Part shown: piece by piece, positions 11,033-64,000 of the stretch
Layout of the letters: every line of letters starts with the position of its first letter
Position numbering within the stretch: position 1 is the stretch's first letter
From: an uncultured virus (IMG/VR IMGVR_UViG_3300031963_000096)
Taxonomy: Duplodnaviria > Heunggongvirae > Uroviricota > Caudoviricetes
IMG/VR virus record: IMGVR_UViG_3300031963_000096
Length of the DNA stretch: 64,000 nt
Strand: one strand, 5' to 3'
Program-made: the position numbers and the translations under genes
The notes under the pieces: generated by a model
Database searches by the model: none
The model's input: the letters and a program-made list of their open reading frames with translations, nothing else
What the model was told of the DNA's origin: nothing

Positions 11033-11881
11033 ATGATATTAATTGATTTTAATCAGGTAGCAATTTCAAATCTGATGGAACAAATCGGATCTTCCAAAAC
11101 TGCGGTAGAAGAAGGTCTGGTTCGCCATATGATTTTAAATACTATTCGTACCTATGTGAAGAAGTTTAAAAATTCACATGGGCCGGAAGTTGTTATTGCC
11201 TGTGACAACAAAAAGTATTGGCGCCGAGAAATTTTCCCTCATTACAAAGCTGGTAGAAAGAAAATTCGTGATTCTTCTGGTCATGATTGGAATACCATAT
11301 TTGAATGCCTGAATAAAATTCGTGAAGAACTCAAACAATACTCGCCTTACAAAGTGATCGATGTTGATACTTGTGAGGCAGATGATATTATTGCGGTTCT
11401 TACAATGCGATATTCAGTACATGAAAAAGTAATGATTCTTTCTTCAGATAAAGACTTTGCTCAATTACAAAAGTTTCCTAATGTTGAACAGTATTCACCA
11501 ATTTTAAAGAAATATATTAAAGAACCATTACCAGCATTTCAACTCAAACAACTAATCATTCGAGGAGACAAAGGTGACGGCATTCCTAACATTCTGTCTA
11601 TGGACTCTGTGTTTGTTACTGGTGGACGCCAGAAACCAATCACAGAAGCAAAAATCATCAAATGGATGAATCAAGAGCCTACAGAATTTTGTAATGAAGA
11701 AATGTTTCGCAATTATACCAGAAACGAAATGTTAATTGATTTGACAAAAATACCTGAAAATCTGAAGCAATCTATTATAGATACCTATGAGAGCGCAAAA
11801 GGCCATTCAAAGCAAGAATTTATGAATTATATGATTGCGAACCGTCTCAAAAATCTTATTGAAGTGATTGATGAATTCTAA
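11033..11881 (+). CDS. rnh: T4-type RNase H (5'-3' exonuclease, PIN/FEN fold)
   Basis: ILIDFNQ, WRREIFPHYKAGRK, EADDII, SSDKDFAQL, GDKGDGIPN. Confidence 0.93.
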   Translation: MILIDFNQVAISNLMEQIGSSKTAVEEGLVRHMILNTIRTYVKKFKNSHGPEVVIACDNKKYWRREIFPHYKAGRKKIRDSSGHDWNTIFECLNKIREELKQYSPYKVIDVDTCEADDIIAVLTMRYSVHEKVMILSSDKDFAQLQKFPNVEQYSPILKKYIKEPLPAFQLKQLIIRGDKGDGIPNILSMDSVFVTGGRQKPITEAKIIKWMNQEPTEFCNEEMFRNYTRNEMLIDLTKIPENLKQSIIDTYESAKGHSKQEFMNYMIANRLKNLIEVIDEF

Positions 11882-12300
11882 TGAGTGCAGAAAAACTATA
11901 TTCAGAAATTTTTGAAGAATTTGAAAAAGCAGAAACAAAAGAACAACGAATTCAAGTTCTGAGGGCAAACTATCATCCCTCTCTCCGTGATTTTCTAATC
12001 ATGGCATTTAATCCTAACATTAAATTTGATGTTGAGGTTCCTAATTACAGACCTGCTCCTGAACCAGCCGGCCTTAATTACACATATTTGGACATGGAAG
12101 TGCCCAAACTCTATCGTTTTATCAAAGATCATCCAAAGCGGTCACCAAACATAACTGAAAAGAAAAAGACACAAATTCTTACTGTTATACTTGAAGCGTT
12201 GCACAAAGATGAAGCTGATCTTTTGGTGAGACTACTCAAAAAACAATTCAAAATAAAAAACCTAACAGTAAAACTTATACAAGAAGCATACGGACTTTAA
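11881..12300 (+). CDS. Conserved T4-like hypothetical protein
   Basis: 139 aa, coupled to rnh; LEALHKDEADLL motif of the type seen in T4-like phages. Confidence 0.6.
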   Translation: MSAEKLYSEIFEEFEKAETKEQRIQVLRANYHPSLRDFLIMAFNPNIKFDVEVPNYRPAPEPAGLNYTYLDMEVPKLYRFIKDHPKRSPNITEKKKTQILTVILEALHKDEADLLVRLLKKQFKIKNLTVKLIQEAYGL

Positions 12301-12301
12301 T

Positions 12302-13048
12302 ATGAAGATTGTTGTGGTATCTGGAGGATTTGATCCTCTACATTCGGGTCATATTTCTTATTTAAATTCAGCAAAAGCACACGGCGACAAATTAATTGTC
12401 GGTGTAAATTCCGATGAGTGGTTGATTCGCAAAAAAGGTCGAGCATTCATGTCTCTATTTGAACGTACTCGAATTTTACAACATATAAGAGAAGTTGACC
12501 ATGTTGTTGAATTTGATGACTCAGATGGTAGTGCTAAACACCTTTTACAAATAGTAAAACAAACTTGGCCGAATGATGAAATCATTTTTGCAAATGGTGG
12601 TGATCGAACACAAGATAATATACCAGAAATGTCGGTTGAAGGAGTAAAATTTGTTTTTGCTGTTGGTGGCGGAAACAAAATGAATTCATCATCATGGATA
12701 CTTGATGAGTGGAAATCACCTAAAACTGAAAGGCCATGGGGTCATTATCGTGTACTGTATGAATCAGAAAATACCAAAGTGAAAGAATTGACGGTAAATC
12801 CAGGTCAATCGTTAAGTATGCAAAAACATGAATTCCGAAATGAACATTGGCATGTTGTTGAAGGCACAGGCGTATTGTATGAAGAACGTAAAAGTTCTAA
12901 CGATACAATAACTTTATATAAACATAATCAAGTTACAATACCATGTGGTGTCTGGCATCGATTATCGAATGAATCAAATGATTTACTGAAAATTGTAGAA
13001 ATACAATATGGCCAAAAATGTCAAGAAGAAGATATTGAAAGAAGATGA
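12302..13048 (+). CDS. Cytidylyltransferase-like domain fused to mannose-6-phosphate isomerase-type cupin
   Basis: SGGFDPLHSGH (HxGH), ANGGDR; C-terminal ERPWG...LSMQKH..RNEHW...WHRL..EIQYG...EEDIER. Confidence 0.88.
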   Translation: MKIVVVSGGFDPLHSGHISYLNSAKAHGDKLIVGVNSDEWLIRKKGRAFMSLFERTRILQHIREVDHVVEFDDSDGSAKHLLQIVKQTWPNDEIIFANGGDRTQDNIPEMSVEGVKFVFAVGGGNKMNSSSWILDEWKSPKTERPWGHYRVLYESENTKVKELTVNPGQSLSMQKHEFRNEHWHVVEGTGVLYEERKSSNDTITLYKHNQVTIPCGVWHRLSNESNDLLKIVEIQYGQKCQEEDIERR

Positions 13049-13800
13049 AAGTAGCCGTAATTACACCTACAATTGGAGCTGACCACTTTGCTAAATGTTT
13101 AGAATCAGTTCAAAATCAAACATATGACAATCTTGTACATTATATTTTTGTTGACGGCAATCAGTATTTGGATATGGCTGATGGGCATATTAATAAAGTT
13201 GGAAATAGAAAACAAATATCAAGAATCACGCTTGAAGAAAACATTGGCAAAGGTTGGTACGGACATAGAGTTTATTCTGCTTGTTCTTTTTTGGTCAACG
13301 CTGACATTATTTGTTACCTTGATGAAGATAATTGGTACGAACCTAACCATGTTGAAGAATTGGTTAATGTCATTAAAGATGGAAATGATTGGGCATATTC
13401 TTTACGAAAAATTTATGACAAGCAAGGTGAATACCTCTGTGAAGATAACTGTGAATCGTTGGGTAAATGGCCTGTATATTTTAATCATGAAGTATTCCAT
13501 ATTGATACCTCCTCTTTTGCTGTTAAGCGTGATGTTGCTACTCGTATAGGTCACGCATGGTACGGCCAATGGGGTGCGGACAGACAATTCTTTGGTGCGA
13601 TTAAGCATCACTATCCAAAATATGATTGTTCACGCCAGCACACACTATGTTACAGATTAGATGGAAATCCTAATTCTGTGACGAAAGATTTTTTTGATCA
13701 AGGCAATTTTACAACAAACCAAAAATACAACGGTAAATATCCATGGAAAGAAGAACGGCTCTCATCACCGGGGGAAGTGGTTACCTTGGTAATCACTTAG
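13045..13800 (+). CDS. Family 2 glycosyltransferase
   Basis: VAVITPT, SVQNQTY, YLDEDNW (DxD). Confidence 0.85.
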   Translation: MKVAVITPTIGADHFAKCLESVQNQTYDNLVHYIFVDGNQYLDMADGHINKVGNRKQISRITLEENIGKGWYGHRVYSACSFLVNADIICYLDEDNWYEPNHVEELVNVIKDGNDWAYSLRKIYDKQGEYLCEDNCESLGKWPVYFNHEVFHIDTSSFAVKRDVATRIGHAWYGQWGADRQFFGAIKHHYPKYDCSRQHTLCYRLDGNPNSVTKDFFDQGNFTTNQKYNGKYPWKEERLSSPGEVVTLVIT

Positions 13801-14690
13801 CAAAAGACCTAAAACAAAAAGGTTGGGAAGTAGTAACACTTGACCGAAAAACCTGTAGTAACAAATATGTTGATTCACATTTTCGTGGCGATGTTCGTGA
13901 CGCCGATGTGTTAATGCAGATATTTGAAACATATCAGGTCAATACAGTTTTTCATCTTGCAGGTCGCATTGAAGTTGGTGAATCATTTAAAGATCCAACT
14001 TTATTTTATGATGTGAATCTTGGTGGCACCTGCAAACTTTTACATATGATGAAATTATATGGTGTTAAAAACATTGTATATTCTTCATCTGCTGCAGTAT
14101 ATAAACAACAAGGTCGTAACTTAAAAGAAGATGATGAAATCGCTCACAATTCACCATATGGTTATACTAAATATGCGTCTGAATGGGCCATCCGTGATTC
14201 GAATTTAAATTACGTTATTTTCAGATATTTCAACCTAGCTGGCGCAGATCCAGACAATGAATTTGGTGAGTGTCACAATCCAGAAACTCATCTAATTCCA
14301 CGAATTCTACAAAATCTAAATAAAGTACAAATATATGGAAAAGACTATCTTACAAACGATGGAACGTGTATTCGTGATTACGTGCATGTTTCTGATGTTG
14401 CCTCTGCCCATGCTGATGGGGCAGATTACCTCAATGCAAGCGGGCAATCCGTTATTCTTAACTTGGGTACTGGGGTAGGATACTCGGTATTAGAAATAAT
14501 TGGCAAAATTGAAGAAGTTACCAAGAAAAAGATTACCTATACCTTCCTCCCACGTAGACCTGGTGACCCGACCCGATTGGTTGCCGATGTTACTCTTGCC
14601 GAAAAAGTCTTGAATTTTCGGCCAAAGTATGATATAATGAACATTCTACAAACAGCACATAACTGGCAAACTACACAAAATGGCAAGTAA
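13743..14690 (+). CDS. galE: UDP-glucose 4-epimerase
   Basis: TGGSGYLG, FHLAG, SSSAAVY, YGYTK, RYFNLAGA, ETHLIP, DGTCIRDYVHV. Confidence 0.9.
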   Translation: MERRTALITGGSGYLGNHLAKDLKQKGWEVVTLDRKTCSNKYVDSHFRGDVRDADVLMQIFETYQVNTVFHLAGRIEVGESFKDPTLFYDVNLGGTCKLLHMMKLYGVKNIVYSSSAAVYKQQGRNLKEDDEIAHNSPYGYTKYASEWAIRDSNLNYVIFRYFNLAGADPDNEFGECHNPETHLIPRILQNLNKVQIYGKDYLTNDGTCIRDYVHVSDVASAHADGADYLNASGQSVILNLGTGVGYSVLEIIGKIEEVTKKKITYTFLPRRPGDPTRLVADVTLAEKVLNFRPKYDIMNILQTAHNWQTTQNGK

Positions 14691-16608: not shown

Positions 16609-16944
16609 ATGACAATTATCTACACTTATCAGAGATCCAGAAAACGCAAGCCCACCGCTAAACAGCGTGAGCTTGCAAAACAATGGGAAGAATTGGTTTC
16701 TAAACATGCACCAAAATCCTCTAATCCAGCCGCTTCTCAGCACCTGCTGCAGCGAGTTGTACCGTATCGCCGTGAAACGCCAAATTACCCATCACTTAAT
16801 ACTACTGAATACAACACCTATAAAAAAGACATTCAGCAATACACCGGTGATAAAATGAAAGGCATTGGTACTTTGCACAAATCAAATGCTGTACCTATTT
16901 TTACGGATGAAGAAGCCAAGGATCAAGCGAGTATGCGAAGGTAA
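16609..16944 (+). CDS. Hypothetical protein
   Basis: Basic ORF with GIGTLHKSNAVPI motif. Confidence 0.6.
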   Translation: MTIIYTYQRSRKRKPTAKQRELAKQWEELVSKHAPKSSNPAASQHLLQRVVPYRRETPNYPSLNTTEYNTYKKDIQQYTGDKMKGIGTLHKSNAVPIFTDEEAKDQASMRR

Positions 16945-17026
16945 GTTAGTACTCACTAACCTGCACCTGGAAGTGTTGTTTTTCTGCAACAAACCTATTG
17001 ACAATTATACCGATTTTTGATATAAT
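16945..17026 (+). promoter_or_regulatory. Sigma70-type early promoter with operator-like repeats
   Basis: GTTAGT-actc-ACTAAC (16945-16960), GTGTTG-N8-CAACA (16973-16991), TTGACA (16998-17003), 17 nt spacer, TATAAT (17021-17026). Confidence 0.85.
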
Positions 17027-17056
17027 GGTAGTATTGAAATTGAGAGAGGTTGTATT

Positions 17057-17821
17057 ATGAAATTATTATCGATTGGCAATCCCAAAGTCCTCAAAGGCAT
17101 GAAACAAGGTTATATGACCTATATTCTGCACCTTGCACCTGCTACTCTTTCAGGTTATAATGTTTGTGCGAAAGCTACCGCAGGTTGTATTGAATCCTGT
17201 TTGAATACATCAGGCCGTGGCGGCATGTTTAAAAAAGGCGAAACGACCAATGTAATTCAACAAGCTCGTATTCGCAAAACAAAATTCTTTTTTGAGAATC
17301 GTGCTGAGTTTATGATGCAATTGGTCAAAGATATTGAATTAGCAATCAAACAATCCGCTAAGAAGAATTTGATTCCTGTTTTTCGCTTGAATGGCACCTC
17401 TGACCTTGCATGGGAAAAATACGAAGCAACGGTTACTGATAAAAATGGCCGTTCAATTGTTTTCAAAAATATCTTTGAAGCATTTCCTTTCATCCAATTT
17501 TATGATTACACCAAAATTCCTGGTCGCAAAGTGAACGGCATCGCTAATTATCATCTGACATTCTCCGAAGCTGATGGTAATGCTCTTGATACACTTAATG
17601 CGATTCGTGCAGGTATGAATGTTGCAACGGTGTTTGGCATCAAAAAGAATTCACCAATGCCTGAAATGTGGAACGGTATGAAAGTTTTTAATGGTGATGA
17701 AAGTGATTTGCGCTTTCTGGATCCAAAAGGTGTTGTTGTTGGTCTATATGCAAAAGGCAAAGCCAAAAAAGACACCTCTGGTTTTGTGAAGTATCCTACT
17801 TTTATGATGAAGGCAGCTTAA
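17057..17821 (+). CDS. Gp88-like protein (radical-SAM-related, atypical Cys motif)
   Basis: CAKATAGCIESC, RLNGTSD, FYDYTK, YHLTFS, GDESDLRFLD. Confidence 0.65.
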   Translation: MKLLSIGNPKVLKGMKQGYMTYILHLAPATLSGYNVCAKATAGCIESCLNTSGRGGMFKKGETTNVIQQARIRKTKFFFENRAEFMMQLVKDIELAIKQSAKKNLIPVFRLNGTSDLAWEKYEATVTDKNGRSIVFKNIFEAFPFIQFYDYTKIPGRKVNGIANYHLTFSEADGNALDTLNAIRAGMNVATVFGIKKNSPMPEMWNGMKVFNGDESDLRFLDPKGVVVGLYAKGKAKKDTSGFVKYPTFMMKAA

Positions 17822-17822
17822 T

Positions 17823-18023
17823 ATGAATTATGACAAACGACATGGCGGCCCGTATGACCGTGGCTCTGCTGATGCATATTATTATCGTGGTTATAACCCA
17901 CACTATTTTAAAGGCAGTAGTTATAACAGCGAAATGGTTGAATTGAAAGATATGACAGCCGAAGAAATTACAGCTTATACTGTTGGATTTCGTGATGAAA
18001 AAGATAGAAAGGCATGGGATTAA
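17823..18023 (+). CDS. Small hypothetical protein
   Basis: HGGPYDRGSADAYY motif; operonic. Confidence 0.6.
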   Translation: MNYDKRHGGPYDRGSADAYYYRGYNPHYFKGSSYNSEMVELKDMTAEEITAYTVGFRDEKDRKAWD

Positions 18024-18275
18024 AATGATTACTGTTGATTCGTTTGAAAAATATAAAAGACCAAATCGTACTGCAATTTATACTCGCATACCAATTAGCG
18101 AGTTAGATTCTTTTCGCAAAGTGATGCAACAATACGATCTATATTTTAAGATGCGGTATCGTGGTCCTCGTTTTAATGTACCATCAGCCTCAAGGCGATT
18201 TGGTGTAAGTAAACAGACCACATGTCTTAAAGAAGATGCAACACATTTTTCAGTTTATAATTATTGAGATTAAAA

Positions 18276-18509
18276 ATGGCAATTCGTAAACGCAATAAAA
18301 GCGATTTAAAGAAAAAGATTGTAATTGATTTGTCTGGTCCACAAGGTAATGCATTTTACCTGATTGGTGTTGTAAAACAGACTTTTCGCAGGTCAGGTGC
18401 AAGTGAACTAGGCGATCAAATTGCCCAAGAAATGATGAGCGGTGATTATGAACACTTGCTTAAAACATTTGATTTGTATCTCGGCGAACATTTTGATTTG
18501 GTGAGGTGA
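18276..18509 (+). CDS. Small hypothetical protein
   Basis: IDLSGPQGNAFYLIG ... SGDYEHLL motif. Confidence 0.6.
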   Translation: MAIRKRNKSDLKKKIVIDLSGPQGNAFYLIGVVKQTFRRSGASELGDQIAQEMMSGDYEHLLKTFDLYLGEHFDLVR

Positions 18510-18537
18510 ACATGAGCGGCAATTAACCTAAAAAGTC

Positions 18538-18566
18538 TTGACAATTAAACCGAAGTATGTTACTAT
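18538..18566 (+). promoter_or_regulatory. Sigma70-type early promoter
   Basis: TTGACA, 17 nt spacer, TGn-TACTAT. Confidence 0.7.
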
Positions 18567-18599
18567 TATTATCCCTAAACTAAATGAGGTATCACTATT

Positions 18600-19061
18600 A
18601 TGGCAAAAACTATCAAACTCAAACCCTTTGAGAAACTCCTTACCGTTATGGTTTCTGGTAAGCCCGTAACAATCGAAGAAATCGATGCAACACTCGGCAA
18701 AGAAATTTACATGTATCGCTTGTCGACCTACATTTGGCACATTAAAACATTCGCCAATGGTGTTGTGAAGGCAATCAAAGATGGTCGCCGTGTTACTGCT
18801 TATCAGGTCATCAATGTGAAAGAAGTTAAAGAATACATGGATCGTGCTGGCGTGACCAAAGCTAACTTTGTTCCTGGTCAAGTCACCAAGAAACCGTCTA
18901 TCGCTAAACTTGCTGACCTTGCGGCGAAGCCTGCTAAGAAAGCACCTGCAAAAGCACCTGCTAAGAAAGCTCCTGCCAAACCGGCGAAAGCACCTGCTAA
19001 ACCCAAGAAAGTTGAAGCAGTTACCGCTGACGATCTGGAAATTGCAGAAGTTACCGAATAA
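18600..19061 (+). CDS. Putative DNA-binding protein with histone H1-like PAKK tail
   Basis: wHTH-like N-terminal domain; AAKPAKKAPAKAPAKKAPAKPAKAPAKPKK; GAGGT RBS. Confidence 0.7.
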   Translation: MAKTIKLKPFEKLLTVMVSGKPVTIEEIDATLGKEIYMYRLSTYIWHIKTFANGVVKAIKDGRRVTAYQVINVKEVKEYMDRAGVTKANFVPGQVTKKPSIAKLADLAAKPAKKAPAKAPAKKAPAKPAKAPAKPKKVEAVTADDLEIAEVTE

Positions 19062-19172
19062 TCTCTCTGTGAAAATGGGGGAGTGAGCGCCACACATGGA
19101 CGCCTATTCTTAAATGACAGCGAATGTCGGGATGACATGCAAAGTGCCCCTTAACTTATTAAAGGAAATATA

Positions 19173-19352
19173 ATGATTGAAATGTTAAATGTAAGTGAAA
19201 AAGCTGCAAAGTTTATGATGGCAAAACCAGGTTCTTTCTTTGTTGTGCCGAAGAATTCAGAAGTACCATTTGAAACTTGTGCAAAATTTGGTGTAAAATT
19301 GTTTGTTAAGAATATGAAAGATAAACCGTTTAAAGTAATTAAACGGATTTAA
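19173..19352 (+). CDS. Small hypothetical protein (not in ORF track)
   Basis: 59 aa, AAAGGA RBS, MIEMLNVSEKAAKF...KVIKRI. Confidence 0.55.
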   Translation: MIEMLNVSEKAAKFMMAKPGSFFVVPKNSEVPFETCAKFGVKLFVKNMKDKPFKVIKRI

Positions 19353-40107: not shown

Positions 40108-42873
40108 ATGGCTTTTATTAAAGATAGATTAACTTTAAATTTTGATACCAGCAAGTTTGGTAGCGGACTGTTTTTAAGTTCTGAATCTCAAAACACTCTA
40201 AACAATTCTCCTAGCGGATTAAGTGAATGGCAAAGAAAAGAAATTGCTAATTCAGCAGTAGGTCTAACAAATTACTATAAAAATCCTGTACTGTCACAAT
40301 GTAATAGACTTTTAGCAAACACTACGAATATAAGAAATTTGTGTTTAGGTGATGTTGCTAACAATTATCCTTTAGCATCAGCACAAATATTAAGTCTTGC
40401 AAACACAGCAAATAATTTAATAATTCAATTAAATGAATTTAAATATCATACTGATAATATTTCTGGTTTGACAGTAACTATCTCTGATTCTGAAGCTGCC
40501 GATACATCTAATATTCCAAACTTTCAAAGTGCAGTAAGTATAGGTGCAGAAGCAACAAGAATTTTATATACAACCGAATCATTTAAAACTACAACTCCAA
40601 TATTAGGTAACTTTACTAGTATTTTTATTGGTGATGAATTAAATGCAAATAGCAATTCTCTTTACAGTAGTTATTCTTCTCTAAGTACTTTAGGGGCTTC
40701 AATCACAAGTACTCAAGTAAATAGTATTATTTCAAATTTGCAATCTGTAAATACTTTTATATACACTCGAAGAACATCAGATTGGAATTTTTTCAAAGAA
40801 GTAAAATCTGTTGTTAATGACTATTACACAGTTTCAAAATTAAACAATTTAGGTAACACAGAAAATTATTTAATAAAAAATTATATTGGTACAGATGCTT
40901 TAAAAGCAAACTTAAATAATGCATCTTCAATAGTACCTACAACAAGTGATATTGCTAACTTTTTTGCAAATACTGAAGCTACTGTAACTCCAGCAACAGT
41001 ATCAACACAACTTACTTCAGCAATAACTGCGGCAACTGAAGCATCTGATTCTGCTGCGTCTGCTTTTGATACTGCTAACGCAGCATACAATACAGCAAAT
41101 ATTAGTCTATCAATTGCAACATCAGCAATTAGTATTGCAAATAATGCTTTAGTGAATGCTTTAAATGCTGTTGATGGTGTTGCACGTTCAAGTGCTTTAG
41201 CTGCTTTTGACCAAGCAAATTCGGCCGCATCTTTAGCAAGTTCTGTACCTTCATTAGGCACTATTGCAACTGATGCTCAAATTTTATCTGCTAGTGCTTT
41301 TTCAAAAGCTAATGCGGCATCTTTTCATGCTGATAGTTCTTACATTCACGCCAACGCTGCTTTTAATACTGCTAACAATGCAACCGATACTTGGGTTCGC
41401 AATGCCGCCAATGCCGCAAGTTCTTACGCTAATGGTGCTTTTGCGGCTGCTAATGCTGCAAATACATTAGCTTTATCTGCATTTAATGCTGCTAATAATT
41501 CAATAGATACTTGGGTTCGCAATGCCGCCAATGCCGCAAGTTCTTACGCTAATGGTGCTTTTGCGGCTGCTAATTCAGCGATAAGTTCTGGTGTTTATGC
41601 CAATGCGGCTTTTGCGGCCGCCAATTCTGCAGCTTCTTCGTCAATAGATTCTTACGCACGAAATCATTCTAATGCTGCTTTCAATTTAGCCAATACAGCA
41701 TCAACAAGTACTGATACATACGTTAGAAATCATGCTAATGCAGCTTTTGAGGCTGCAAATACAAAACTATCTTTAAATGGTGGTTCAATAACAGGTAATC
41801 TAGTAATAACTGGAAATTTAACCGTATCTGGTAATGTAACAACAGTTAGTGCTAATAATCTTGTTGTTAATGATAATATGATTTATCTTAACAATAATAA
41901 TACTGTTTCTAATCCTGATTTAGGCTTTGCTGGTAATTATAATGATGGAACTTATAAACATTCTGGATTATTTCGTGATGCTACTGATGGAATGTGGAAA
42001 TTTTTTGACGGTTATACTCCTGAGCCTGATGCATCCCCTTACATTAATACTTCACATGCCAGTTTTCAACTTGGTACAGTAAATGCTCTTATACAATCTG
42101 TTTCTGTTGTATCTAGAGGTATAGATTTATTAGATCATTCAAATGGCGCTTTTAACACAGCAAATACATCTGACCAAAAAGCTACATCATCTGGAAGTTA
42201 CGCTAACTCATCTTACCTTCATGCTAATTCATCTTATTTTCACGCTAATGCATCTTTTGTTAGAGCAAATACGGCATCAAATACAGCAACTTCAGCTGGT
42301 TCTTATGCTAACGGAGCTTTTGAAACCGCTAACGCAGCTTCTGCTCATGCAACGGGAGCTTTTAGTACTGCAAATTCTAGAGTCTCATCTGTTGCAATAT
42401 CAGGAACAAATATAACGGTATCAGGAAGTCCTATAACTTCATCAGGAACAATAACACTATCTATACCTCAAGCAATAGATACAACATCATCAGTTCGTTT
42501 TTTAAGTTTAGGTATTGGAACAAATGCAAGTGGTACAACAGGAGAAATAAGAGCTACAAATGACATAACTGCTTTTTATTCAGATGATAGATTAAAGGTT
42601 CGTTTAGGATTAATTGAAAATGCTTTAGATAAATTAAACACTCTATCAGCATTTTATTATGAGCCTAATGATGTAGCTCAAAAATTAGGATATGAGAAAA
42701 AGAAATATGTTGGTTTATCAGCTCAAGAAGTGCAAAAAATATTGCCAGAAGTTATTAGAGAAGCACCAATTAGTTCTGAGTATCTAACAATTCAATATCA
42801 CAATATGATACCTTTATTAGTTGCTGCTATAAAAGAGTTAAAAGAAGAAATTGATAATTTGAAAAGTAGATAA
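40108..42873 (+). CDS. Tail fibre protein with Ala/Asn-rich repeats and C-terminal S74-type intramolecular chaperone
   Basis: HANAAF/ANAA repeats; AFYSDDRLK...GLSAQEV..ILPE...LLVAAIKEL. Confidence 0.8.
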   Translation: MAFIKDRLTLNFDTSKFGSGLFLSSESQNTLNNSPSGLSEWQRKEIANSAVGLTNYYKNPVLSQCNRLLANTTNIRNLCLGDVANNYPLASAQILSLANTANNLIIQLNEFKYHTDNISGLTVTISDSEAADTSNIPNFQSAVSIGAEATRILYTTESFKTTTPILGNFTSIFIGDELNANSNSLYSSYSSLSTLGASITSTQVNSIISNLQSVNTFIYTRRTSDWNFFKEVKSVVNDYYTVSKLNNLGNTENYLIKNYIGTDALKANLNNASSIVPTTSDIANFFANTEATVTPATVSTQLTSAITAATEASDSAASAFDTANAAYNTANISLSIATSAISIANNALVNALNAVDGVARSSALAAFDQANSAASLASSVPSLGTIATDAQILSASAFSKANAASFHADSSYIHANAAFNTANNATDTWVRNAANAASSYANGAFAAANAANTLALSAFNAANNSIDTWVRNAANAASSYANGAFAAANSAISSGVYANAAFAAANSAASSSIDSYARNHSNAAFNLANTASTSTDTYVRNHANAAFEAANTKLSLNGGSITGNLVITGNLTVSGNVTTVSANNLVVNDNMIYLNNNNTVSNPDLGFAGNYNDGTYKHSGLFRDATDGMWKFFDGYTPEPDASPYINTSHASFQLGTVNALIQSVSVVSRGIDLLDHSNGAFNTANTSDQKATSSGSYANSSYLHANSSYFHANASFVRANTASNTATSAGSYANGAFETANAASAHATGAFSTANSRVSSVAISGTNITVSGSPITSSGTITLSIPQAIDTTSSVRFLSLGIGTNASGTTGEIRATNDITAFYSDDRLKVRLGLIENALDKLNTLSAFYYEPNDVAQKLGYEKKKYVGLSAQEVQKILPEVIREAPISSEYLTIQYHNMIPLLVAAIKELKEEIDNLKSR
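41386..41574 (+). repeat. Exact 69-nt direct repeat, period 120 nt
   Basis: gatacttgggttcgc...gcggctgctaat at 41386-41454 and 41506-41574. Confidence 0.9.
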
Positions 42874-43950
42874 ATGCCTTTACAGTCATCTGGCCAAATA
42901 TCAATGTCGCAGATCAATACTGAGCTTGGTCAATCCTCTTCAGCCCAAATTTCTTTAGGATCAGCTACCGTTAGATCACTTTTGGGTGTTTCAAGTGGTG
43001 CAATTTCTTTAAGTAATGCATATGGCAAATCATCAAGTTTTTCTGCGCCAGCTGTTACAAGTAGTTTGACAAATGTGAACTTACGAACTTTACTTTTATC
43101 TCAGGGTTGGGATGGCACATCAGCAGTAATATTTACAGTTAACGCTGGAGTTTACATTTATTCAACATCAACAGGAACACCAGCTTTAACTATTAGCGGT
43201 TCTTGGCCAGGTGGTCTTTCAATAGTTAATAATGGATTTATAATTGGTTGTGGTGGTCAAGGTGCAAGTTTCAGTTCAATTCCTGCTTCTCATCTTCCTG
43301 GAAGTCCTGGAGGAGATGCCATTTCCACAAGTACAAATCTTACAATTACAAACAATGGTTATATTTGTGGCGGTGGTGGAGGTGGCGGTGGATCTTCATT
43401 AGGTACATTAAGTGGAGGGGATGTAATATTCATAGCTGCTCTTGGCGGCGGCGGAGGCGCCGGAGGAGGTAGTGGTGGAAATACTGTTAGAGGACCCAGC
43501 ACAGTAACATTTACGGGTGGAGCTGGAGGAGGTATTGGCGCCGCAGGATCAAACGGCCAGGGTGCAACTGATTTTCAGAATACTGGTACAGCTGGCGGCG
43601 GCGGAGGCCGAGTTCTTCCAGGTAGTGGTGGTGTTTATTCTGCCTACGGCGGCCAAGGCGGTGGAGCCGGTGGAGCAGGAGGTGACGGAACTAGAATCCT
43701 TTCAAACAATTTTGGCGGAGGTTTTCCTGCCGGCAATATGGGATCGGGTGGTGGAGGAGGTTGGGGAGCTTCTGGAGGTAACGGAGGAAGTGCAACTCCA
43801 GCCGGATCAGGAGGAAGTTCTAACAATGCAGGCGGCAGCGGAGCTGGAAATATCACAGGATCAGGTGGTGCCGGTGGTCGTGCAATAAGACTTAATGGCA
43901 ATTCTGTTACTTGGACGAATTTTGGTACAACTTGGGGTTCTGTAAGTTAA
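42874..43950 (+). CDS. Glycine-rich receptor-binding adhesin (T2/S16 gp38-like)
   Basis: IVNNGFIIGCGG, NNGYICGGGGGGG, repeated GGGGG..GGG motifs, terminal GGAGGRAI...W...G..WG; follows the fibre gene. Confidence 0.75.
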   Translation: MPLQSSGQISMSQINTELGQSSSAQISLGSATVRSLLGVSSGAISLSNAYGKSSSFSAPAVTSSLTNVNLRTLLLSQGWDGTSAVIFTVNAGVYIYSTSTGTPALTISGSWPGGLSIVNNGFIIGCGGQGASFSSIPASHLPGSPGGDAISTSTNLTITNNGYICGGGGGGGGSSLGTLSGGDVIFIAALGGGGGAGGGSGGNTVRGPSTVTFTGGAGGGIGAAGSNGQGATDFQNTGTAGGGGGRVLPGSGGVYSAYGGQGGGAGGAGGDGTRILSNNFGGGFPAGNMGSGGGGGWGASGGNGGSATPAGSGGSSNNAGGSGAGNITGSGGAGGRAIRLNGNSVTWTNFGTTWGSVS

Positions 43951-57334: not shown

Positions 57335-60300
57335 ATGACTATTCCTATCATAACAAGAACGAATACCATTGATGAATGGCGAATTCAAACAAATTTGTCA
57401 GCTATAGAATTAAATAATTTAAAAGCTAACAATTATACAAAATCAAATGGTACTTTAGAATTAGCTAACAACTCTGTACTTTTAATAAGTGCAAACGGTA
57501 CCGCACTCCAAGTTTCAAATAGTGCTTTTATCGGTAGAAATTTAGCAGTAACAAATAACGTTTCTGTTGGTGCAGTTGGTTCTGGTGTTGGTAATGTCTC
57601 TATAGGTAACTCTGTTTTGATTGCTGGACCCGGAGAAGCAGTTAACGTTTCAAATAGTGTTTATGTTGGTGGCAATAGCAATGTTAGAGGCAACGTGTAT
57701 GCGAACAATGCAGTTGTCAATAATTCTGTTTATGTTGGTGGCACCGCTAACGTTGCTGGTATTGTTACACTATCAGGAACAGGTAAAGTATTGGAAGCAA
57801 ATACTGGAACTGTATATGTTAATAATGCATATCTAACTACTGCAACACTAGATCAAGCAAACGTTGAATTGATCTATGCTCTTGAAGCTAAAATTGACAA
57901 CCTTTCTGATATTGCTTCTGCTGTAATTGGTATTTTGCGTGTAACAACAGGTAATATTTATTATCTAACATCGAACACTTTATATGCTAATACTGGAACG
58001 ATCAGAGATTTTGTTGCAAACAGCACAGGTAATGTAGTAACACTTATATCAAATGTTGCAACAATTAATACCGCAACTATTGGTAACTTAAACGCAACAA
58101 ATGGTACGATTATCAATGGTAATGTAGTAACACTTATATCAAACAATGCTACTTTAAATACATCTACTTTAGTTAATATAACAGTAACTAACGCTGCAAT
58201 TGCAAATGCCGTTATTTCTTCGGCTGCAATTACGACTGGTCAAATTACAAATGGTACAATTACAAATGGTACTATCATTAATGGTAATATAGTTACTTTA
58301 ATTTCAAATAGTGCAACACTTAATAATTCTACATTGTTAAGTTCAAATGTTGTTTCTGCAAATATTATAAATGCTAATGTTTCTGGTAATGTAAACTTTA
58401 CCAATGGATCAACATTAAGATTTAATTCTGGATCAGCAAATGATGCTCTTGTTGTAGATTCAGGTATAACCTCTTTACAGACTGTCGTTGTTGAAGGAAA
58501 CTTAACTGTTGCTGGAGTATTTACTCAAACAGGTAATATTAATTTTGAAACAGATAGATTCATTTTCAATGCAAATACACCTGACAATAAAGATGCGTTG
58601 ATTGTTAATAATAGAATTTACGGAAATAATGCACAGATTGTTTGGAACGAAACCAATGATCGATGGGAAGTTTCAACAGGTAATACTTGGACAACAACTT
58701 ATAAGATTTTAGATGGCGCAGACATTTATACAGGTGTTGATTCTGATAGTACAACACTTGTAGCTTCTGCGAGTGCTGTTAAATTTGCATATCAAGCTGG
58801 TGGTGTTGTAGCCGGTGGCTATGCTAATGCAGCTTATAGACATGCCAATTCTGCATTTGTAAGTCAAAATACAACAGGTGTTTATGCCAATACTGGATAT
58901 GCTCATGCAAATTCAGCACATGATGTGGCAAATTCTGCTTTTAGTGGAGTAAGTGGTACACATGCAAATGCGGCCTACAGACATGCAAATTCATCTTATG
59001 CACATGCAAATACGGCTAATGTATCTGCTCAAGCTGCCTTTGATGCGGCTAACAATGCTTTTGCAGCTGGTGGTCAATTTGCTTATAGACATGCTAATTC
59101 AGCACACGATATTGCAAACTCAGCTTTTGCTGGAACAACAGGTACTCATGCCAACTCAGCATATTTTACTGCAAATACCGCTTTAACAAATGCTGAAATT
59201 GCTGACCAAAAAGCTGTAGCAGCTAATACTAGAGCCGCTTTAGCTAACGTTCATGCAAATGCCGCATATAATTTTTCAAACACAATAAACAACTTTGCTT
59301 TTCATGCTTATACTCATGCTAATGCAGCGTTTGCTCGAGCAAATACAGGAATTACATCTACTGGAGGTACTATAACAGGTGATTTAACAGTTAATGGAAC
59401 ATTGAATGCTACTGGAGCTTCAATTTTTGCAAATGATATGAAAATTGCAGATGGAATTATAACACTTAATTCTGACATATTACAAACTGCATCACCAATT
59501 GAAAATGCTGGATTAGAAATAGATCGAGGCGCTTCACCTAATGTATTCTTTTTATGGGATGAAACTTCCGATAGGTGGAGATTTACAAATGATGGTACAA
59601 ATTATCAAGACGTTGCAGGTCAAACAACAATTAATTCATCTTTAGCCGCATATGTACCTTTAGCAGGTGGAACCATGACTGGTTTCTTGACTCTGAGTGC
59701 AAGTCCATCAAGTGCGATGCATGCTGCTACAAAAGCTTATGTTGATGCTACAATAGGATCAGCAGACCTAACAAATTTAAATGCTTCAAATTTAACAAGT
59801 GGTACTGTTCCAGTTGCTCGCTTGAGTGGATTATATAATATCAATGTTAATGGTAATGCTAACTATGCAACAACAGCTGGATCTGCCACAAGTGCAACGA
59901 CCGCTAGCACCGCTTCCAGTTTAAATGGTGGTAATATTCAAAACTGTACTGGTTTCGCACAAAGTAGTGGAGCATTTTCAATGACCGGAAGTTCTTTCGG
60001 TGTAAATCCCTATGCACAATTTTATGGAGGCATAAGATCTTTTGCTGATATAAATGCATCTGGAGCAAATATAACAGCAAGTACTTTTTATGGTAATTTA
60101 AGTGGAACAGCAACACGAGCTCTTTATGGTGACTTGGCAGAAAAGTATCTAGCTGACGGCGAATACGATGAAGGTACCGTAATGGCCATAGGCGGCGAAA
60201 AAGAAATAACAGCAGCAACAATTGCCAACTTTAGAGCTCTAGGTGTAGTATCATTGAGACCTGCACACTTAATGAATGCTGATTTGGAAAACGGAACAAT

Positions 60301-60478
60301 TGTTGCTTTAAAAGGTAGAGTTCCTGTAAAAGTTATAGGCAAAGTAATCAAAGGTCAACCTTTAGGATTAAGTAACATAGCAGGAGTAGCAAGTGTTAAT
60401 GAAATGAATTACTTTGCATTATCTCTGATAGATAAGAACGATGATGGTGAAGGTATAGTCGAAGCAGTTATTTTATAA
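57335..60478 (+). CDS. Tail fibre protein with G2-type intramolecular chaperone
   Basis: TIDEWR N-terminus, beta-rich and HANSA repeats, GLEIDRG..W.ET.DRW, C-terminal GDLAEKY...GRVPVKV. Confidence 0.75.
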   Translation: MTIPIITRTNTIDEWRIQTNLSAIELNNLKANNYTKSNGTLELANNSVLLISANGTALQVSNSAFIGRNLAVTNNVSVGAVGSGVGNVSIGNSVLIAGPGEAVNVSNSVYVGGNSNVRGNVYANNAVVNNSVYVGGTANVAGIVTLSGTGKVLEANTGTVYVNNAYLTTATLDQANVELIYALEAKIDNLSDIASAVIGILRVTTGNIYYLTSNTLYANTGTIRDFVANSTGNVVTLISNVATINTATIGNLNATNGTIINGNVVTLISNNATLNTSTLVNITVTNAAIANAVISSAAITTGQITNGTITNGTIINGNIVTLISNSATLNNSTLLSSNVVSANIINANVSGNVNFTNGSTLRFNSGSANDALVVDSGITSLQTVVVEGNLTVAGVFTQTGNINFETDRFIFNANTPDNKDALIVNNRIYGNNAQIVWNETNDRWEVSTGNTWTTTYKILDGADIYTGVDSDSTTLVASASAVKFAYQAGGVVAGGYANAAYRHANSAFVSQNTTGVYANTGYAHANSAHDVANSAFSGVSGTHANAAYRHANSSYAHANTANVSAQAAFDAANNAFAAGGQFAYRHANSAHDIANSAFAGTTGTHANSAYFTANTALTNAEIADQKAVAANTRAALANVHANAAYNFSNTINNFAFHAYTHANAAFARANTGITSTGGTITGDLTVNGTLNATGASIFANDMKIADGIITLNSDILQTASPIENAGLEIDRGASPNVFFLWDETSDRWRFTNDGTNYQDVAGQTTINSSLAAYVPLAGGTMTGFLTLSASPSSAMHAATKAYVDATIGSADLTNLNASNLTSGTVPVARLSGLYNINVNGNANYATTAGSATSATTASTASSLNGGNIQNCTGFAQSSGAFSMTGSSFGVNPYAQFYGGIRSFADINASGANITASTFYGNLSGTATRALYGDLAEKYLADGEYDEGTVMAIGGEKEITAATIANFRALGVVSLRPAHLMNADLENGTIVALKGRVPVKVIGKVIKGQPLGLSNIAGVASVNEMNYFALSLIDKNDDGEGIVEAVIL

Positions 60479-60497: not shown

Positions 60498-61922
60498 ATG
60501 AATCAGCCTTTAAATTTTTATGCAAAAAAATCTATGAAAGGAAATCCTCATGTTTTTGATGATTACTTTCAATTGAGTGCTTTAACAATTACTGTAACGA
60601 GCGCATGTAATTTACATTGCGATTATTGTTTTGAAGAACATGAAAGTAGGTTAATAAAACCCGATGAAGTAGTTGACATTATTGATGTTGCATATAAGAA
60701 TTTTAGAAAAAATAATCCTACTGGTTCAATGCCATTATCTTTTTTTGGTGGTGAACCTTTTATCGCATGGAAAACTATTCAAAGATGTATTGAACACGCT
60801 AAAGAAAAAGGTTATGATCTTTCTGTTGGCATAACAACAAACTTAACTTTGTTGACTGATGAACAAATGGAGTTCATTGATGAGAATGATATTGGTTTGT
60901 TAGTTTCAATAGACGGCACCAAAGAAGTTCATGATAGATTACGTGATAATTCTTATGATGTTGTTTCTAAAAATGTCAAAAAACTAATAGACAATGGCAT
61001 GAAAAGGTTAATAGAAGCTCGGATGACAGTTCCGCCAGGTGAATTTCATAATCTTTTAGCTGGAGTTCAAAACATTTTTTCTTTAGGTGTTGATAACATT
61101 GCTCCTGTTCCTGTTACCGATCAAGTTTGGACTAAAGATCAAGTTAAATTATTAGAAAATGAACTTGATAAATTGTATGAATGGACAATTTCAATATACG
61201 AAGATCCAAACAATAAAAGAAACATTAGTGTGAAAATGATTGATGATTATTTGTTTCAATGCATACATGACGAATTTGATATGAAAGGTACACCTTGTAG
61301 TTTTGGAAGTAATAAATGGCTGAGTATAGGTCCTAGTGGTGAAATGTATCCATGTCACCAAATACATACACGAAAAGATCAACAAGAATTGTTTTACATG
61401 GGAAATATTTTAAAAGGTGAAATACTTCCACATAGAATTTTAGGTCAGGTTTTGCCACATTCATGGAAAAAAGCTGACGATCCAGAATATACATGCGACA
61501 CATGTGAGGCATATAATATTTGTAGAGGTTCTTGCCCAAGTGAAAACTATGATTTAAATAAAGATTATTTAAAAACTCCAGATGAATGGTGTGATTGGGT
61601 TAGAATGTCAAAACGAATCACGAAAAAATACCAGAATCAACTTTTAAATAGTAAAAATTTGAGAAATAAAAGATTAAATTCTATAAAACTAAATTTAGAG
61701 ATTATGGAAATGATTGATAGGGTGAGAGAATATAATGTATACTCCCGAGAATTTCCTCTTGTTGTTCTTGATTTATATGAAAAAGTTTTAAGTTGTGAAC
61801 ATAATTTGTTACCTGGTTTTTCTGACTTATCAAAAAATAAATTAGCAAAATTTAGAGAACAACTAACACAAATTAGAGATGAATTAATTAAAAAAGAATC
61901 AATGCAAAAGGAAACAGTTTAA
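60498..61922 (+). CDS. Radical SAM/SPASM domain maturase 1
   Basis: CNLHCDYC (CxxxCxxC), FFGGEP, TTN.TLL, VSIDG; SPASM CSFG...YPCHQ...CDTC....CRGSCP...C. Confidence 0.93.
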   Translation: MNQPLNFYAKKSMKGNPHVFDDYFQLSALTITVTSACNLHCDYCFEEHESRLIKPDEVVDIIDVAYKNFRKNNPTGSMPLSFFGGEPFIAWKTIQRCIEHAKEKGYDLSVGITTNLTLLTDEQMEFIDENDIGLLVSIDGTKEVHDRLRDNSYDVVSKNVKKLIDNGMKRLIEARMTVPPGEFHNLLAGVQNIFSLGVDNIAPVPVTDQVWTKDQVKLLENELDKLYEWTISIYEDPNNKRNISVKMIDDYLFQCIHDEFDMKGTPCSFGSNKWLSIGPSGEMYPCHQIHTRKDQQELFYMGNILKGEILPHRILGQVLPHSWKKADDPEYTCDTCEAYNICRGSCPSENYDLNKDYLKTPDEWCDWVRMSKRITKKYQNQLLNSKNLRNKRLNSIKLNLEIMEMIDRVREYNVYSREFPLVVLDLYEKVLSCEHNLLPGFSDLSKNKLAKFREQLTQIRDELIKKESMQKETV

Positions 61923-62521
61923 TGGGTACCTCTGTACATCAATCACAAAATACGATCATCGAAAACGATGATTATAATCCAAATACTGAAAATGATGCTT
62001 GGAATATTCGAAGAAGATATGTTGGATTAGCTGCCATTTGGAGTAATCCAAACGCTGGAGATACTGGTTGTGCTAGAACGCAAACATATAGTACGTCCAT
62101 AAGAGTTAGAAAATTTTCAGATGCTGGAAGACCTTATAGTGATGGTACTATTCTTGGTCTTACTGTAAGACAGCCTGTAGACAATCAAGAAATTTTAGCT
62201 ACAGATTTAGATAATGCAAGACGAATTATCAATGAAGGTGTTGCAGCTGTAAATCAATCTTTTTTAAATTCAACAACTGGATTTATTAATCCAGCTTCTG
62301 GGTATGCAAGTCGAGATCAAGAAATTTTAGCTTCACACATCAATAATTTAATTAATACTATTATAATCACAGAAACTAAGTTAGACATATACAATTCATA
62401 TTATGATGGAGCTGACTTATGTCAAAGAAGTTGCCAAATACAATGTCAGACAGCATGCCAAACAAGTTGTCAAGGATGTAATACTTCACAATGCCACAAT
62501 CAAAAATGTGGAGTGCATTGA
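61922..62521 (+). CDS. Putative radical-SAM substrate: 199-aa protein with C-terminal Cys-rich SCIFF-like tail
   Basis: C-terminus CQRSCQIQCQTACQTSCQGCNTSQCHNQKCGVH; coupled between two rSAM genes. Confidence 0.75.
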   Translation: MGTSVHQSQNTIIENDDYNPNTENDAWNIRRRYVGLAAIWSNPNAGDTGCARTQTYSTSIRVRKFSDAGRPYSDGTILGLTVRQPVDNQEILATDLDNARRIINEGVAAVNQSFLNSTTGFINPASGYASRDQEILASHINNLINTIIITETKLDIYNSYYDGADLCQRSCQIQCQTACQTSCQGCNTSQCHNQKCGVH

Positions 62522-62522
62522 T

Positions 62523-63848
62523 ATGTTTGATGTAATTTCCAAAGTAACATTAAAACTCAGCACATATTGTAATTTAGCTTGTGAGTATTGTCATCAAATG
62601 ACTGATGATAAAAAACATCATGTTACTTTTGAAAAATATAAAGAAATGTATGACTTTTTACTAAAGACAAATTTGTCTGATGTTGTTGAAGTAACTTTAA
62701 CTGGTGGAGAAATTTCCCTTTTAGAAGAAGAATATGAAACAGCTGTAAAATGGTTCAGAAAGATTGAAAGACAGAGAGATGTAAAGTTTACTTTTGCTGT
62801 TGTTTCAAATGGTACAAATATAAAACAATTATTTAAATTAATAAAACAAGGTGATTTAAATCCTAAAAGAACAACAATTAGTTGGGATGGATTATACACC
62901 ATGTCAAAGAGTCGTAAAAGTAAATTTGAAAAATTCAATGATGATTTCTTTAAAAATGTTGTTACTGAAATTGGCCAAAGTCCATGGGCAAAGCAATTAA
63001 ACATTACACATGCAATAACACCTACTACCATCCCTTATTTACACGATAGTTTAGTTTTTGCTTTAGATGCTGGTGTAAAAAATTTTGGTTTTTATTATAT
63101 ACATGAAGCCGATTATAGCGACAAAGAATTTTTAAAAATTTATGATGAACAAGTTACAAAATTAGGTGAAGAATTTGTAAAACGATATGAAGATTTGTCA
63201 ACAAGATTTGTTTATTATAATTGGCAATTATTATATGCTAAAGAAAATTTGCCAACAGATAACAAAGAATTAATGAGAGCCACAACTCTTTGTCACAAAT
63301 TAGGAAGAACGGTGCATTTTGACCCATTAGGTGACATTTATGGTTGTATTTATTTTGGAGACCATAGAGCTCTAAAACTAGGTGATTTGGAAAATGGTAA
63401 TATAGATAAAACGAAATATCAAAAATTTAGTGATCAATACTTCGAAATGCCAGGTTGCAAATTAGATAGTTGTGGCAATTCACATTGTTTTGAATGTCCA
63501 GCAAGTAACTATGTACATAAAGGAAAAATGGCGAATAGATTTAGTAACACATGCGAAATGTTATCTATTGAAAAAAGAATTTACTATGATTTAAAACCTA
63601 AACTTAAAATAGATGAATTTGATAAAGCTTTTTATTGGATGGAAGAAGATCATTTAGAACAAAAAAACTATGATGATAAGTATGAAACATATTTAAATGA
63701 TATAGTAGGTATACCTTTAACTGAGGAAGCTTATGTTGAAGATGATGAGTACTCAAATAGATTAAGTCCAACGTATAAAAATGTTGTTACTTGGATGAAA
63801 AAAACTCCTAAGAAAAAAGAATTTACTCTAAATTTAGAAACCATATGA
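62523..63848 (+). CDS. Radical SAM/SPASM domain maturase 2
   Basis: CNLACEYC, LTGGE, SNGT, ISWDG; CHKLG...GCIY...C....C....C..CP...C; true start ATG 62523. Confidence 0.9.
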   Translation: MFDVISKVTLKLSTYCNLACEYCHQMTDDKKHHVTFEKYKEMYDFLLKTNLSDVVEVTLTGGEISLLEEEYETAVKWFRKIERQRDVKFTFAVVSNGTNIKQLFKLIKQGDLNPKRTTISWDGLYTMSKSRKSKFEKFNDDFFKNVVTEIGQSPWAKQLNITHAITPTTIPYLHDSLVFALDAGVKNFGFYYIHEADYSDKEFLKIYDEQVTKLGEEFVKRYEDLSTRFVYYNWQLLYAKENLPTDNKELMRATTLCHKLGRTVHFDPLGDIYGCIYFGDHRALKLGDLENGNIDKTKYQKFSDQYFEMPGCKLDSCGNSHCFECPASNYVHKGKMANRFSNTCEMLSIEKRIYYDLKPKLKIDEFDKAFYWMEEDHLEQKNYDDKYETYLNDIVGIPLTEEAYVEDDEYSNRLSPTYKNVVTWMKKTPKKKEFTLNLETI

Positions 63849-64000
63849 AAAAGAAGTTTTCAAAAATAGGTTCTAATATCAATCATGTTTATCTTATGAT
63901 GACAGAGGCTTGTCCTTTAGATTGTGAATACTGTTACATAAAAGATAGAAAAACAAAAAACAATGTAAGTGATGAAGATATTGATACTTTAATAAATGCT
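63845..64000 (+). CDS. Radical SAM enzyme 3, N-terminal fragment (truncated by window end; not in ORF track)
   Basis: ATGA overlap; MKKKFSKIGSNINHVYLMMTEACPLDCEYCYIK has CxxxCxxC. Confidence 0.85.
   Translation, partial: MKKKFSKIGSNINHVYLMMTEACPLDCEYCYIKDRKTKNNVSDEDIDTLINA

Follow-up and report, generated by a model that had tools for sequence, protein, structure and literature searches.

Why should a phage carry, directly behind a tail-fibre gene, a run of radical SAM (rSAM) genes and among them a small protein that ends in a ladder of cysteines? The window, i.e., the whole stretch of 64,000 nucleotides that was analysed, belongs to a contig from a T4-like phage, on which genes for a baseplate wedge, an S74 fibre, and a GP38 adhesin are found, and the sequencing runs containing the stretch are labelled mostly freshwater or lake water. 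The locus in question has the gene order fibre (1047 aa), R1, target, R2, R3, R4, U1, U2, IscA-type gene, fibre-assembly-like gene, and second fibre; from the first fibre to the IscA-type gene the spacing is −17 to +19 nt, that of a packed operon. Elsewhere in the window, at 40108–43950, another fibre gene with a Peptidase_S74 chaperone stands before a GP38-family adhesin gene, an arrangement of the T-even type. The features of the locus are the following.

57335–60478, + strand: upstream fibre-type gene, 1047 aa, marking the genomic slot of the cassette
60498–61922, + strand: R1, a radical SAM/SPASM protein of 474 aa (PF04055 and SPASM) with no N-terminal RRE and with a helical C-terminal extension, the predicted ladder cross-linker
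61922–62419, + strand: N-domain of the target, residues 1–166, with three G-x-x-I-x-A-x-D-x-N plus helix repeats
62420–62518, + strand: tail of the target, residues 167–199, with five Cys in CxxxC register, Gln172, 176, 180, and 184, C186, and C191-H-x-Q-x-C196-G
62523–63848, + strand: R2, a radical SAM/SPASM protein of 441 aa with no RRE
63845–64000 in the window, to 65134 in G000, + strand: R3, an rSAM/SPASM protein
65118–66350, beyond the window: R4, an rSAM/SPASM protein
66362–67513, beyond the window: U1, a predicted alpha-solenoid
67517–68722, beyond the window: U2, a member of the U1 family
68715–69050, beyond the window: IscA/HesB-type Fe-S protein
from 69634, beyond the window: second fibre, preceded by the fibre-assembly-like gene

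The target is a protein of 199 aa translated from the ORF 61922–62521 (+ strand). The eight Cys of its tail, the first five in strict CxxxC register, are present in the translated ORF as first described (positions 167, 171, 175, 179, 183, 186, 191, and 196; nt 62420–62518), one more lies at position 51, and the ladder is the sole one of five Cys in CxxxC register in a six-frame translation of the contig (71,548 bases). The sequence-only reading had considered residues 1–166 too long for a normal leader, and the AlphaFold2 monomer (pTM 0.71; helices at 21–41, 93–113, and 137–160) agrees with it, as in the model this part is a folded domain and not a leader. The tail, with a pLDDT below 50 in the same model, had been pictured as a displayed peptide; it runs on from helix 3, and we prefer to count it as a part of the module. 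The internal repeat reported previously does exist as a pair at residues 88 and 132, but the repeats number three, not two. This pair is the top internal one and lacks significance in the sequence taken alone (a score as high was reached by 101 of 1000 shuffles); in a 73-sequence profile it stands ca. 6 SD over other offsets, and the third copy, at residues 9–18, ca. 5.5 SD. In the consensus each copy reads G-x-x-I-x-A-x-D-x-N and leads into a helix. The “I.A.H.N.L” tail motif invoked earlier is a label named by none of the libraries used. A search of the contig with the N-domain profile found no second copy of the domain. A 99%-identical variant of the target, P0002, differs in its last residues and has no CHxQxCG end; it comes from a short contig in which an assembly error is possible.

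The target has 31 close homologues, and its relatives form 125 clusters at 50% identity. In the close homologues the tail is the best-preserved part (mean majority fraction 0.94 vs. 0.38–0.67 for the N-terminal segments). A ladder of at least five Cys stands at the C-terminus in 111 of the 125 clusters, is internal in two, and shorter in 12; the CHxQxC end is found in 100, and the part preceding the ladder has between 37 and 919 residues. Many long members have helix 1 at the N-terminus and helix 3 with the tail at the C-terminus, on either side of an insert of up to several hundred residues, and wherever the ends could be mapped the insert domains sit between helices 1 and 3. CBM5/12, F5/8-type, or Gly-rich domains were found in 10 of 119 members scanned against Pfam. 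Among the side forms are 740–752-aa relatives (P0139, P0148, P0150, and P0151) that have a Gly-rich domain and whose ladder is reduced to three Cys and three Gln; no locus was found for P0148, whose ladder is truncated. Other paralogues (L124/L125 at ca. 18004–19206, L077 at 11495–13834, and L128 at 16915–18309) have an internal ladder of four to five Cys, after which comes another domain that matches no known family.

The genomic neighbourhood was compared in 131 loci, whose targets fall into 27 clusters at 70% identity; many of the loci are redundant, and five represent this very phage. R1 lies at most 600 bp upstream of the target in all 120 evaluable, partly redundant loci (this count excludes nine loci at contig edges and two that lack a C-terminal target), and the R1–target pair occurs in T4-like phages as well as in jumbo phages with an RNA polymerase. 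As a rule R2 and R3 accompany it, R4 was found in at least four locus groups, and U-family genes in most. In L007 and L015 the full tail is adjoined by R1 alone, R2 being absent from the L015 record, which is 29% complete. All the loci are on viral or metagenome contigs; three scans of GTDB, a weak negative owing to their narrow patterns, gave no relatives, and tblastn against cultured phage records gave no match for P0001, R2, P0097, or the targets of L134 and L135 described below. Longer fused forms were absent among 421 candidates in a search with residues 1–158 of P0125, again a weak negative. In L066 (10407–12065) two HNH endonuclease genes sit between the target and R3, and L007 (12993–14526) has, near its capsid genes, a second rSAM gene with a partner gene on the opposite strand, by eye resembling the L135 type.

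All four enzymes retain the CxxxCxxC, GGE, and SPASM cysteines. None contains an RRE, since their sequences start too early to hold one; in R1, residue 25 already aligns with residue 95 of 5WGG, its best solved relative (E 6e-25), leaving no space for it. We take 5WGG to be CteB. The top NCBIfam family of both R1 and R2 is PapB, which R1 matches with 180 bits vs. a cut-off of 340, and the best solved match of R3 is SkfB. The model of U1 is an alpha-solenoid (pLDDT 87) for which fold searches returned only generic TPR-like solenoids, and its homologue search gave, among the matches listed, 120 near-identical proteins of one group. The U family has a conserved YLPERIY-type motif at the start and one to three copies per cassette; U1/U2 (66362–68722 in G000 and 9363–11723 in L001) have a GC content of 0.21, with 0.28–0.36 in the adjoining genes.

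The locus has the arrangement used to recognise ranthi-type systems, an intact rSAM/SPASM enzyme in tight linkage with a target rich in Cys, and the target is very probably a substrate of these enzymes, in agreement with the earlier opinion that it is not a secreted RiPP. As that reading had also observed, no leader peptidase, protease, or exporter family is present among the 14 surrounding genes scanned, on a contig that is incomplete. Among known systems it resembles SCIFF ranthipeptides (TIGR03973/PF13165), whose CxxxC ladder is likewise rich in Gln, Thr, and Ser, and whose maturase CteB/ScfB (TIGR03974) corresponds to the top solved relative of R1. SCIFF, however, is a six-Cys peptide of ca. 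45 aa, and here a folded protein of 199 aa stands in a phage fibre context, with four RRE-less enzymes and with Gln rather than Thr as the predicted acceptor. The target has no TIGR03973/PF13165 match at E ≤ 0.1 (one of 31 homologues matches at E 0.02), and R1 scores 124.6 bits vs. the TIGR03974 cut-off of 425. The CXXX-repeat system (TIGR04114/PF27846, TIGR04117, and TIGR04115), of which no characterisation was found in the literature search, shares a Cys at each fourth residue beside rSAM/SPASM genes and differs from the target in that the ladder here is short and fixed, with invariant Gln and a CHxQxCG end. With the TIGR04115 cut-off at 350, the scores of R1 (84.3 bits) and R2 (55.6 bits) do not make them TIGR04115 maturases; TIGR04117 matches weakly 17 of the 31 homologues (best E 0.02), P0001 itself having no NCBIfam match, and PF27846 appeared solely in Atlas viral-cluster neighbours of the N-domain (scores of 0.81, leads only). 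PapB/PapA (freyrasin) is comparable in providing the best NCBIfam match of R1 and R2 and in its multiple overlapping thioethers, which for the target are predicted, but, according to the accessible parts of PMC8326336 and PMC8172795, PapB requires an acidic acceptor at i+4 in a strict Cys-X3-Asp, whereas in the ladders i+4 is Cys and Asp or Glu occupies only 9 of 1591 non-Cys positions. The target thus failed the criteria tested for both SCIFF and PapA. In its mode of action it would most resemble CrpA or QhpC, that is, a folded protein with predicted rSAM-made thioethers: CrpC of Methanococcus voltae installs ranthionine links, which are rSAM thioethers, in the whole protein CrpA (PMC13692751, as far as accessible), and with QhpD/QhpC it shares rSAM/SPASM-made non-alpha thioethers in a whole, Cys-rich, uncleaved protein. 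These systems differ in being cellular and served by a single enzyme (with an RRE in CrpC), in their Cys motifs, and, in the accessible text, in having no virion role.

The ladder itself suggests where such thioethers might be placed. The previous expectation was that in homologues the Cys spacing would be conserved while the intervening residues vary; the former was found, but the intervening residues are constrained, a Gln following Cys2–5 in 88–98% of ladders, with Met as the usual substitute. The register was examined in 152 sequences, 137 with full and 15 with short ladders. In the full ladders the first Cys has a Gln at +5 in 133 of 137 cases and at +1 in just 18, while the last Cys has one at +5 in a single case; in the short ladders the last Cys has a Gln at +5 in 14 of 15, despite there being no Cys before that Gln. 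Short ladders comprise about five lineages and 12 of the 15 were found by a profile rewarding that Gln, so this part of the test is suggestive. Whether the ladder is full or short, i,i+5 is the only register in which each conserved Gln finds a Cys partner; i,i+5 thioethers are therefore predicted, and Cys(i)–Gln(i+5) chemistry, read from this register, has in our judgement an even chance of being correct. An i,i+5 link has a precedent in SCIFF, where a Cys32–Thr37 gamma-thioether was obtained in vitro; on co-expression a Cys32–Thr34 link was found instead, and the register is disputed (PMC8326336 and PMC8172795, accessible parts).

The enzymes could also act on the target, again taken as a virion protein, in another way, forming alpha-carbon thioethers, links in the i+1, i+2, or i−3 register, epimers, or C–C bonds, with Gln serving for recognition or packing only. 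The dispute over SCIFF speaks for this, as do the fact that R1 alone is clearly nearest to ranthisynthases, the match of R3 to SkfB, and the lack of any report of Gln as a thioether acceptor in the accessible part of the rSAM literature reviewed. It is nevertheless unlikely, given that no other register pairs each conserved Gln with a Cys and that the residues replacing Gln are mostly Met or Glu, which both keep the gamma-methylene.

Eight Cys with a conserved His, the CHxQxC end in four-fifths of the clusters, and an IscA-type gene in the operon would also suit an unmodified Zn or Fe-S element, structural or serving as an electron or cluster partner, the rSAM enzymes then acting on some other substrate. 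Such a tail would hardly be expected to vary from three to more than five Cys with the Gln+5 rule unbroken; the enzymes are nearest to peptide maturases, and other cassettes in the same slot combine different Cys tails with different rSAM sets. We therefore regard a purely metal-binding tail as improbable, and prefer the target as a substrate of its neighbours.

Where the product acts is a separate matter. The sequence-only reading called the N-domain structural-type: it is folded according to the model, but searches of annotated structural families and of solved structures gave no match to it. The target has no Pfam, PHROG, or NCBIfam match, and no PHROG family is common to more than one of 50 target members. 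With solved structures the profile search reached at best E 0.11 and Foldseek against PDB found none at E ≤ 0.001; the best VIA match (Z 8.7) is a designed helical filament and so points to no more than a common arrangement. In BFVD the top matches come from Myoviridae sp. ctYA416 (two proteins, E 0.006 and 0.013) and from rudiviruses (E 0.017–0.05), and the Atlas neighbours of residues 1–163 are mostly viral proteins, some with SGNH, Ig, or FN3 fusions (TM ca. 0.5, leads only). PHROG tail matches occur in four long targets, and the gene preceding R1 has tail-family matches in L006, L027, L125, and L077; the collagen-type tail fibre that precedes the same cassette in L006 shares 49% identity over 125 aa with the C-terminal domain of the upstream fibre.

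A search with this C-terminal domain showed other rSAM cassettes filling the same slot in related T4-like phages (L134–L136), i.e., in three of eight distinct non-self loci examined. In L134 (4369–8208) a sugar dehydrogenase, two rSAMs, and a Cys-rich target with an S74 chaperone come directly after the homologous fibre; in L135 (4356–8207) and L136 (4356–8204) a cupin, an rSAM, a target with a CHxSCH tail, and two partners do so. A tail-free N-domain profile run against 2571 sequences, the best reversed controls giving E of ca. 0.5 (0.54), matched the L134 target with E 3e-6 and that of L135 weakly (E 0.04). The L134 target has a C-terminal Peptidase_S74 above the cut-off and tail-fibre PHROG matches. 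The sister cassettes are alike in having rSAM genes and a Cys-tailed target right after a homologous fibre, with helical repeats that are clear in L134 and weak in L135, and differ in tails, enzyme sets, and partner proteins, with no described chemistry. By eye, a Cys-poor 304-aa post-fibre protein of L141 seemed another relative, but its hhalign probability is 1.6%.

The L135-type cassette was also found in cultured phages (Atu_ph07 gp170 and RSL2 ORF068). The L135 target matches gp170 with E 7.5e-14, mostly in the last helix and tail; the N-domain profile has no direct match to gp170, so the link is transitive and, through the L135 target, weak. In the accessible part of PMC6102473, gp170 is listed in the virion table with eight peptides covering 35% of it, and the mass given there agrees with the numbering; gp168, gp169, gp171, and gp172 are absent from that table. 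According to the same source gp170 (31.9 kDa) was present in all nine gel slices, most abundantly in slice 1 alongside a 127-kDa protein, which may reflect an SDS-resistant oligomer or a cross-link.

Proteins of two further phages may be mentioned here. Ralstonia phage RP12 ORF074 (L146, 2284–2661) is a Cys-free, His-rich protein of 125 aa with the same three repeats, matched by the N-domain profile with E 0.006 and by the repeat profile with 3e-7, and its gene has a fibre-type gene on one side and three rSAM genes on the other. Erwinia phage Wellington gp182 (L147, 1549–1956) has 135 aa, 23 Cys in a Gly/Ser CxxxC ladder, and two rSAM genes downstream, and does not match the target-family profiles.

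The insert domains, the same-slot L134 target with its S74 chaperone, the PHROG tail matches, and the presence of gp170 in virions favour a virion location of the target, which is likely on these indirect lines. The alternative is a product acting in the infected cell or after lysis, in host take-over, superinfection exclusion, or as a RiPP-like signal, with the N-domain as an enzyme-docking leader. It could explain why the gene ahead of the cassette in L007, L015, L016, and L067 is not a fibre but a non-structural one such as thymidylate synthase, and why the T4 late promoter TATAAATA (three matches vs. 8.4 expected) is absent upstream of the cassette. Moreover, the list of 32 virion proteins in the accessible part of PMC5468394 contains neither RP31 ORF70, which corresponds to RP12 ORF074, nor its fibre neighbour ORF69. 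CBM5/12, F5/8, and Gly-rich inserts or an S74 chaperone would be unusual for leaders, and some paralogues extend 136–269 residues beyond the start of the ladder; together with the lack of a protease or exporter among the scanned genes and the finding of gp170 in virions, this makes a non-virion product improbable. As for expression, sigma-70 promoter matches were at chance level only. RNA contigs from four freshwater metatranscriptome runs cover the fibre and cassette patchily, and one contig bridges the R1–target junction, library DNA not being excluded in either case.

The explanation which we somewhat favour is that of a tail-fibre-associated virion component whose Cys–Gln ladder is cross-linked by its own rSAM cassette before assembly. 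In such a scheme R1 would join Cys167, 171, 175, and 179 to the side chains of Gln172, 176, 180, and 184, probably at C-gamma, to give four overlapping thioether rings, and R2–R4 would act on the remaining Cys/His/Gln end (183–196). The solenoid proteins U1/U2 may hold the substrate, substituting for the missing RRE, and the IscA-type protein may assist Fe-S cluster loading; this division of labour among R2–R4, U1/U2, and IscA is put forward with considerable reserve. The three-repeat helical domain could serve as a docking scaffold and the stapled tail as a rigid, protease-resistant end for docking or host contact. By analogy to gp38, the target might also be a monomeric cap that closes a trimeric fibre. 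More broadly, large phages may possess an exchangeable slot for fibre-tip chemistry, in which one and the same type of docking domain, made of three repeats, is combined with different Cys tails and the rSAM cassettes that go with them, here a Cys-to-Gln thioether ladder with end modifications on a virion protein having a structural or host-recognition role; this wider picture is possible, and we offer it as a tentative one.

Phage radical SAM genes are usually labelled “radical SAM protein” or taken for antibiotic or metabolic genes. One was read as an antibiotic gene in PMC12801897 (accessible part), and in the accessible literature no phage virion protein was found to be described as matured by rSAM enzymes. 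The cassette described here is a real, conserved phage system that would extend the known rSAM thioether chemistry, and the locus supplies a named, very probable substrate, four RRE-less enzymes, and a residue-level prediction of four Cys–Gln i+5 links. The general idea is checkable on real virions, as the cultured phage Atu_ph07 carries a sister target in its particles (PMC6102473, accessible part). If true, it would mean that multi-enzyme RiPP-type chemistry can mature virion proteins, that Gln joins the thioether acceptors, and that cassette swapping is a phage means of varying a part of the particle surface.
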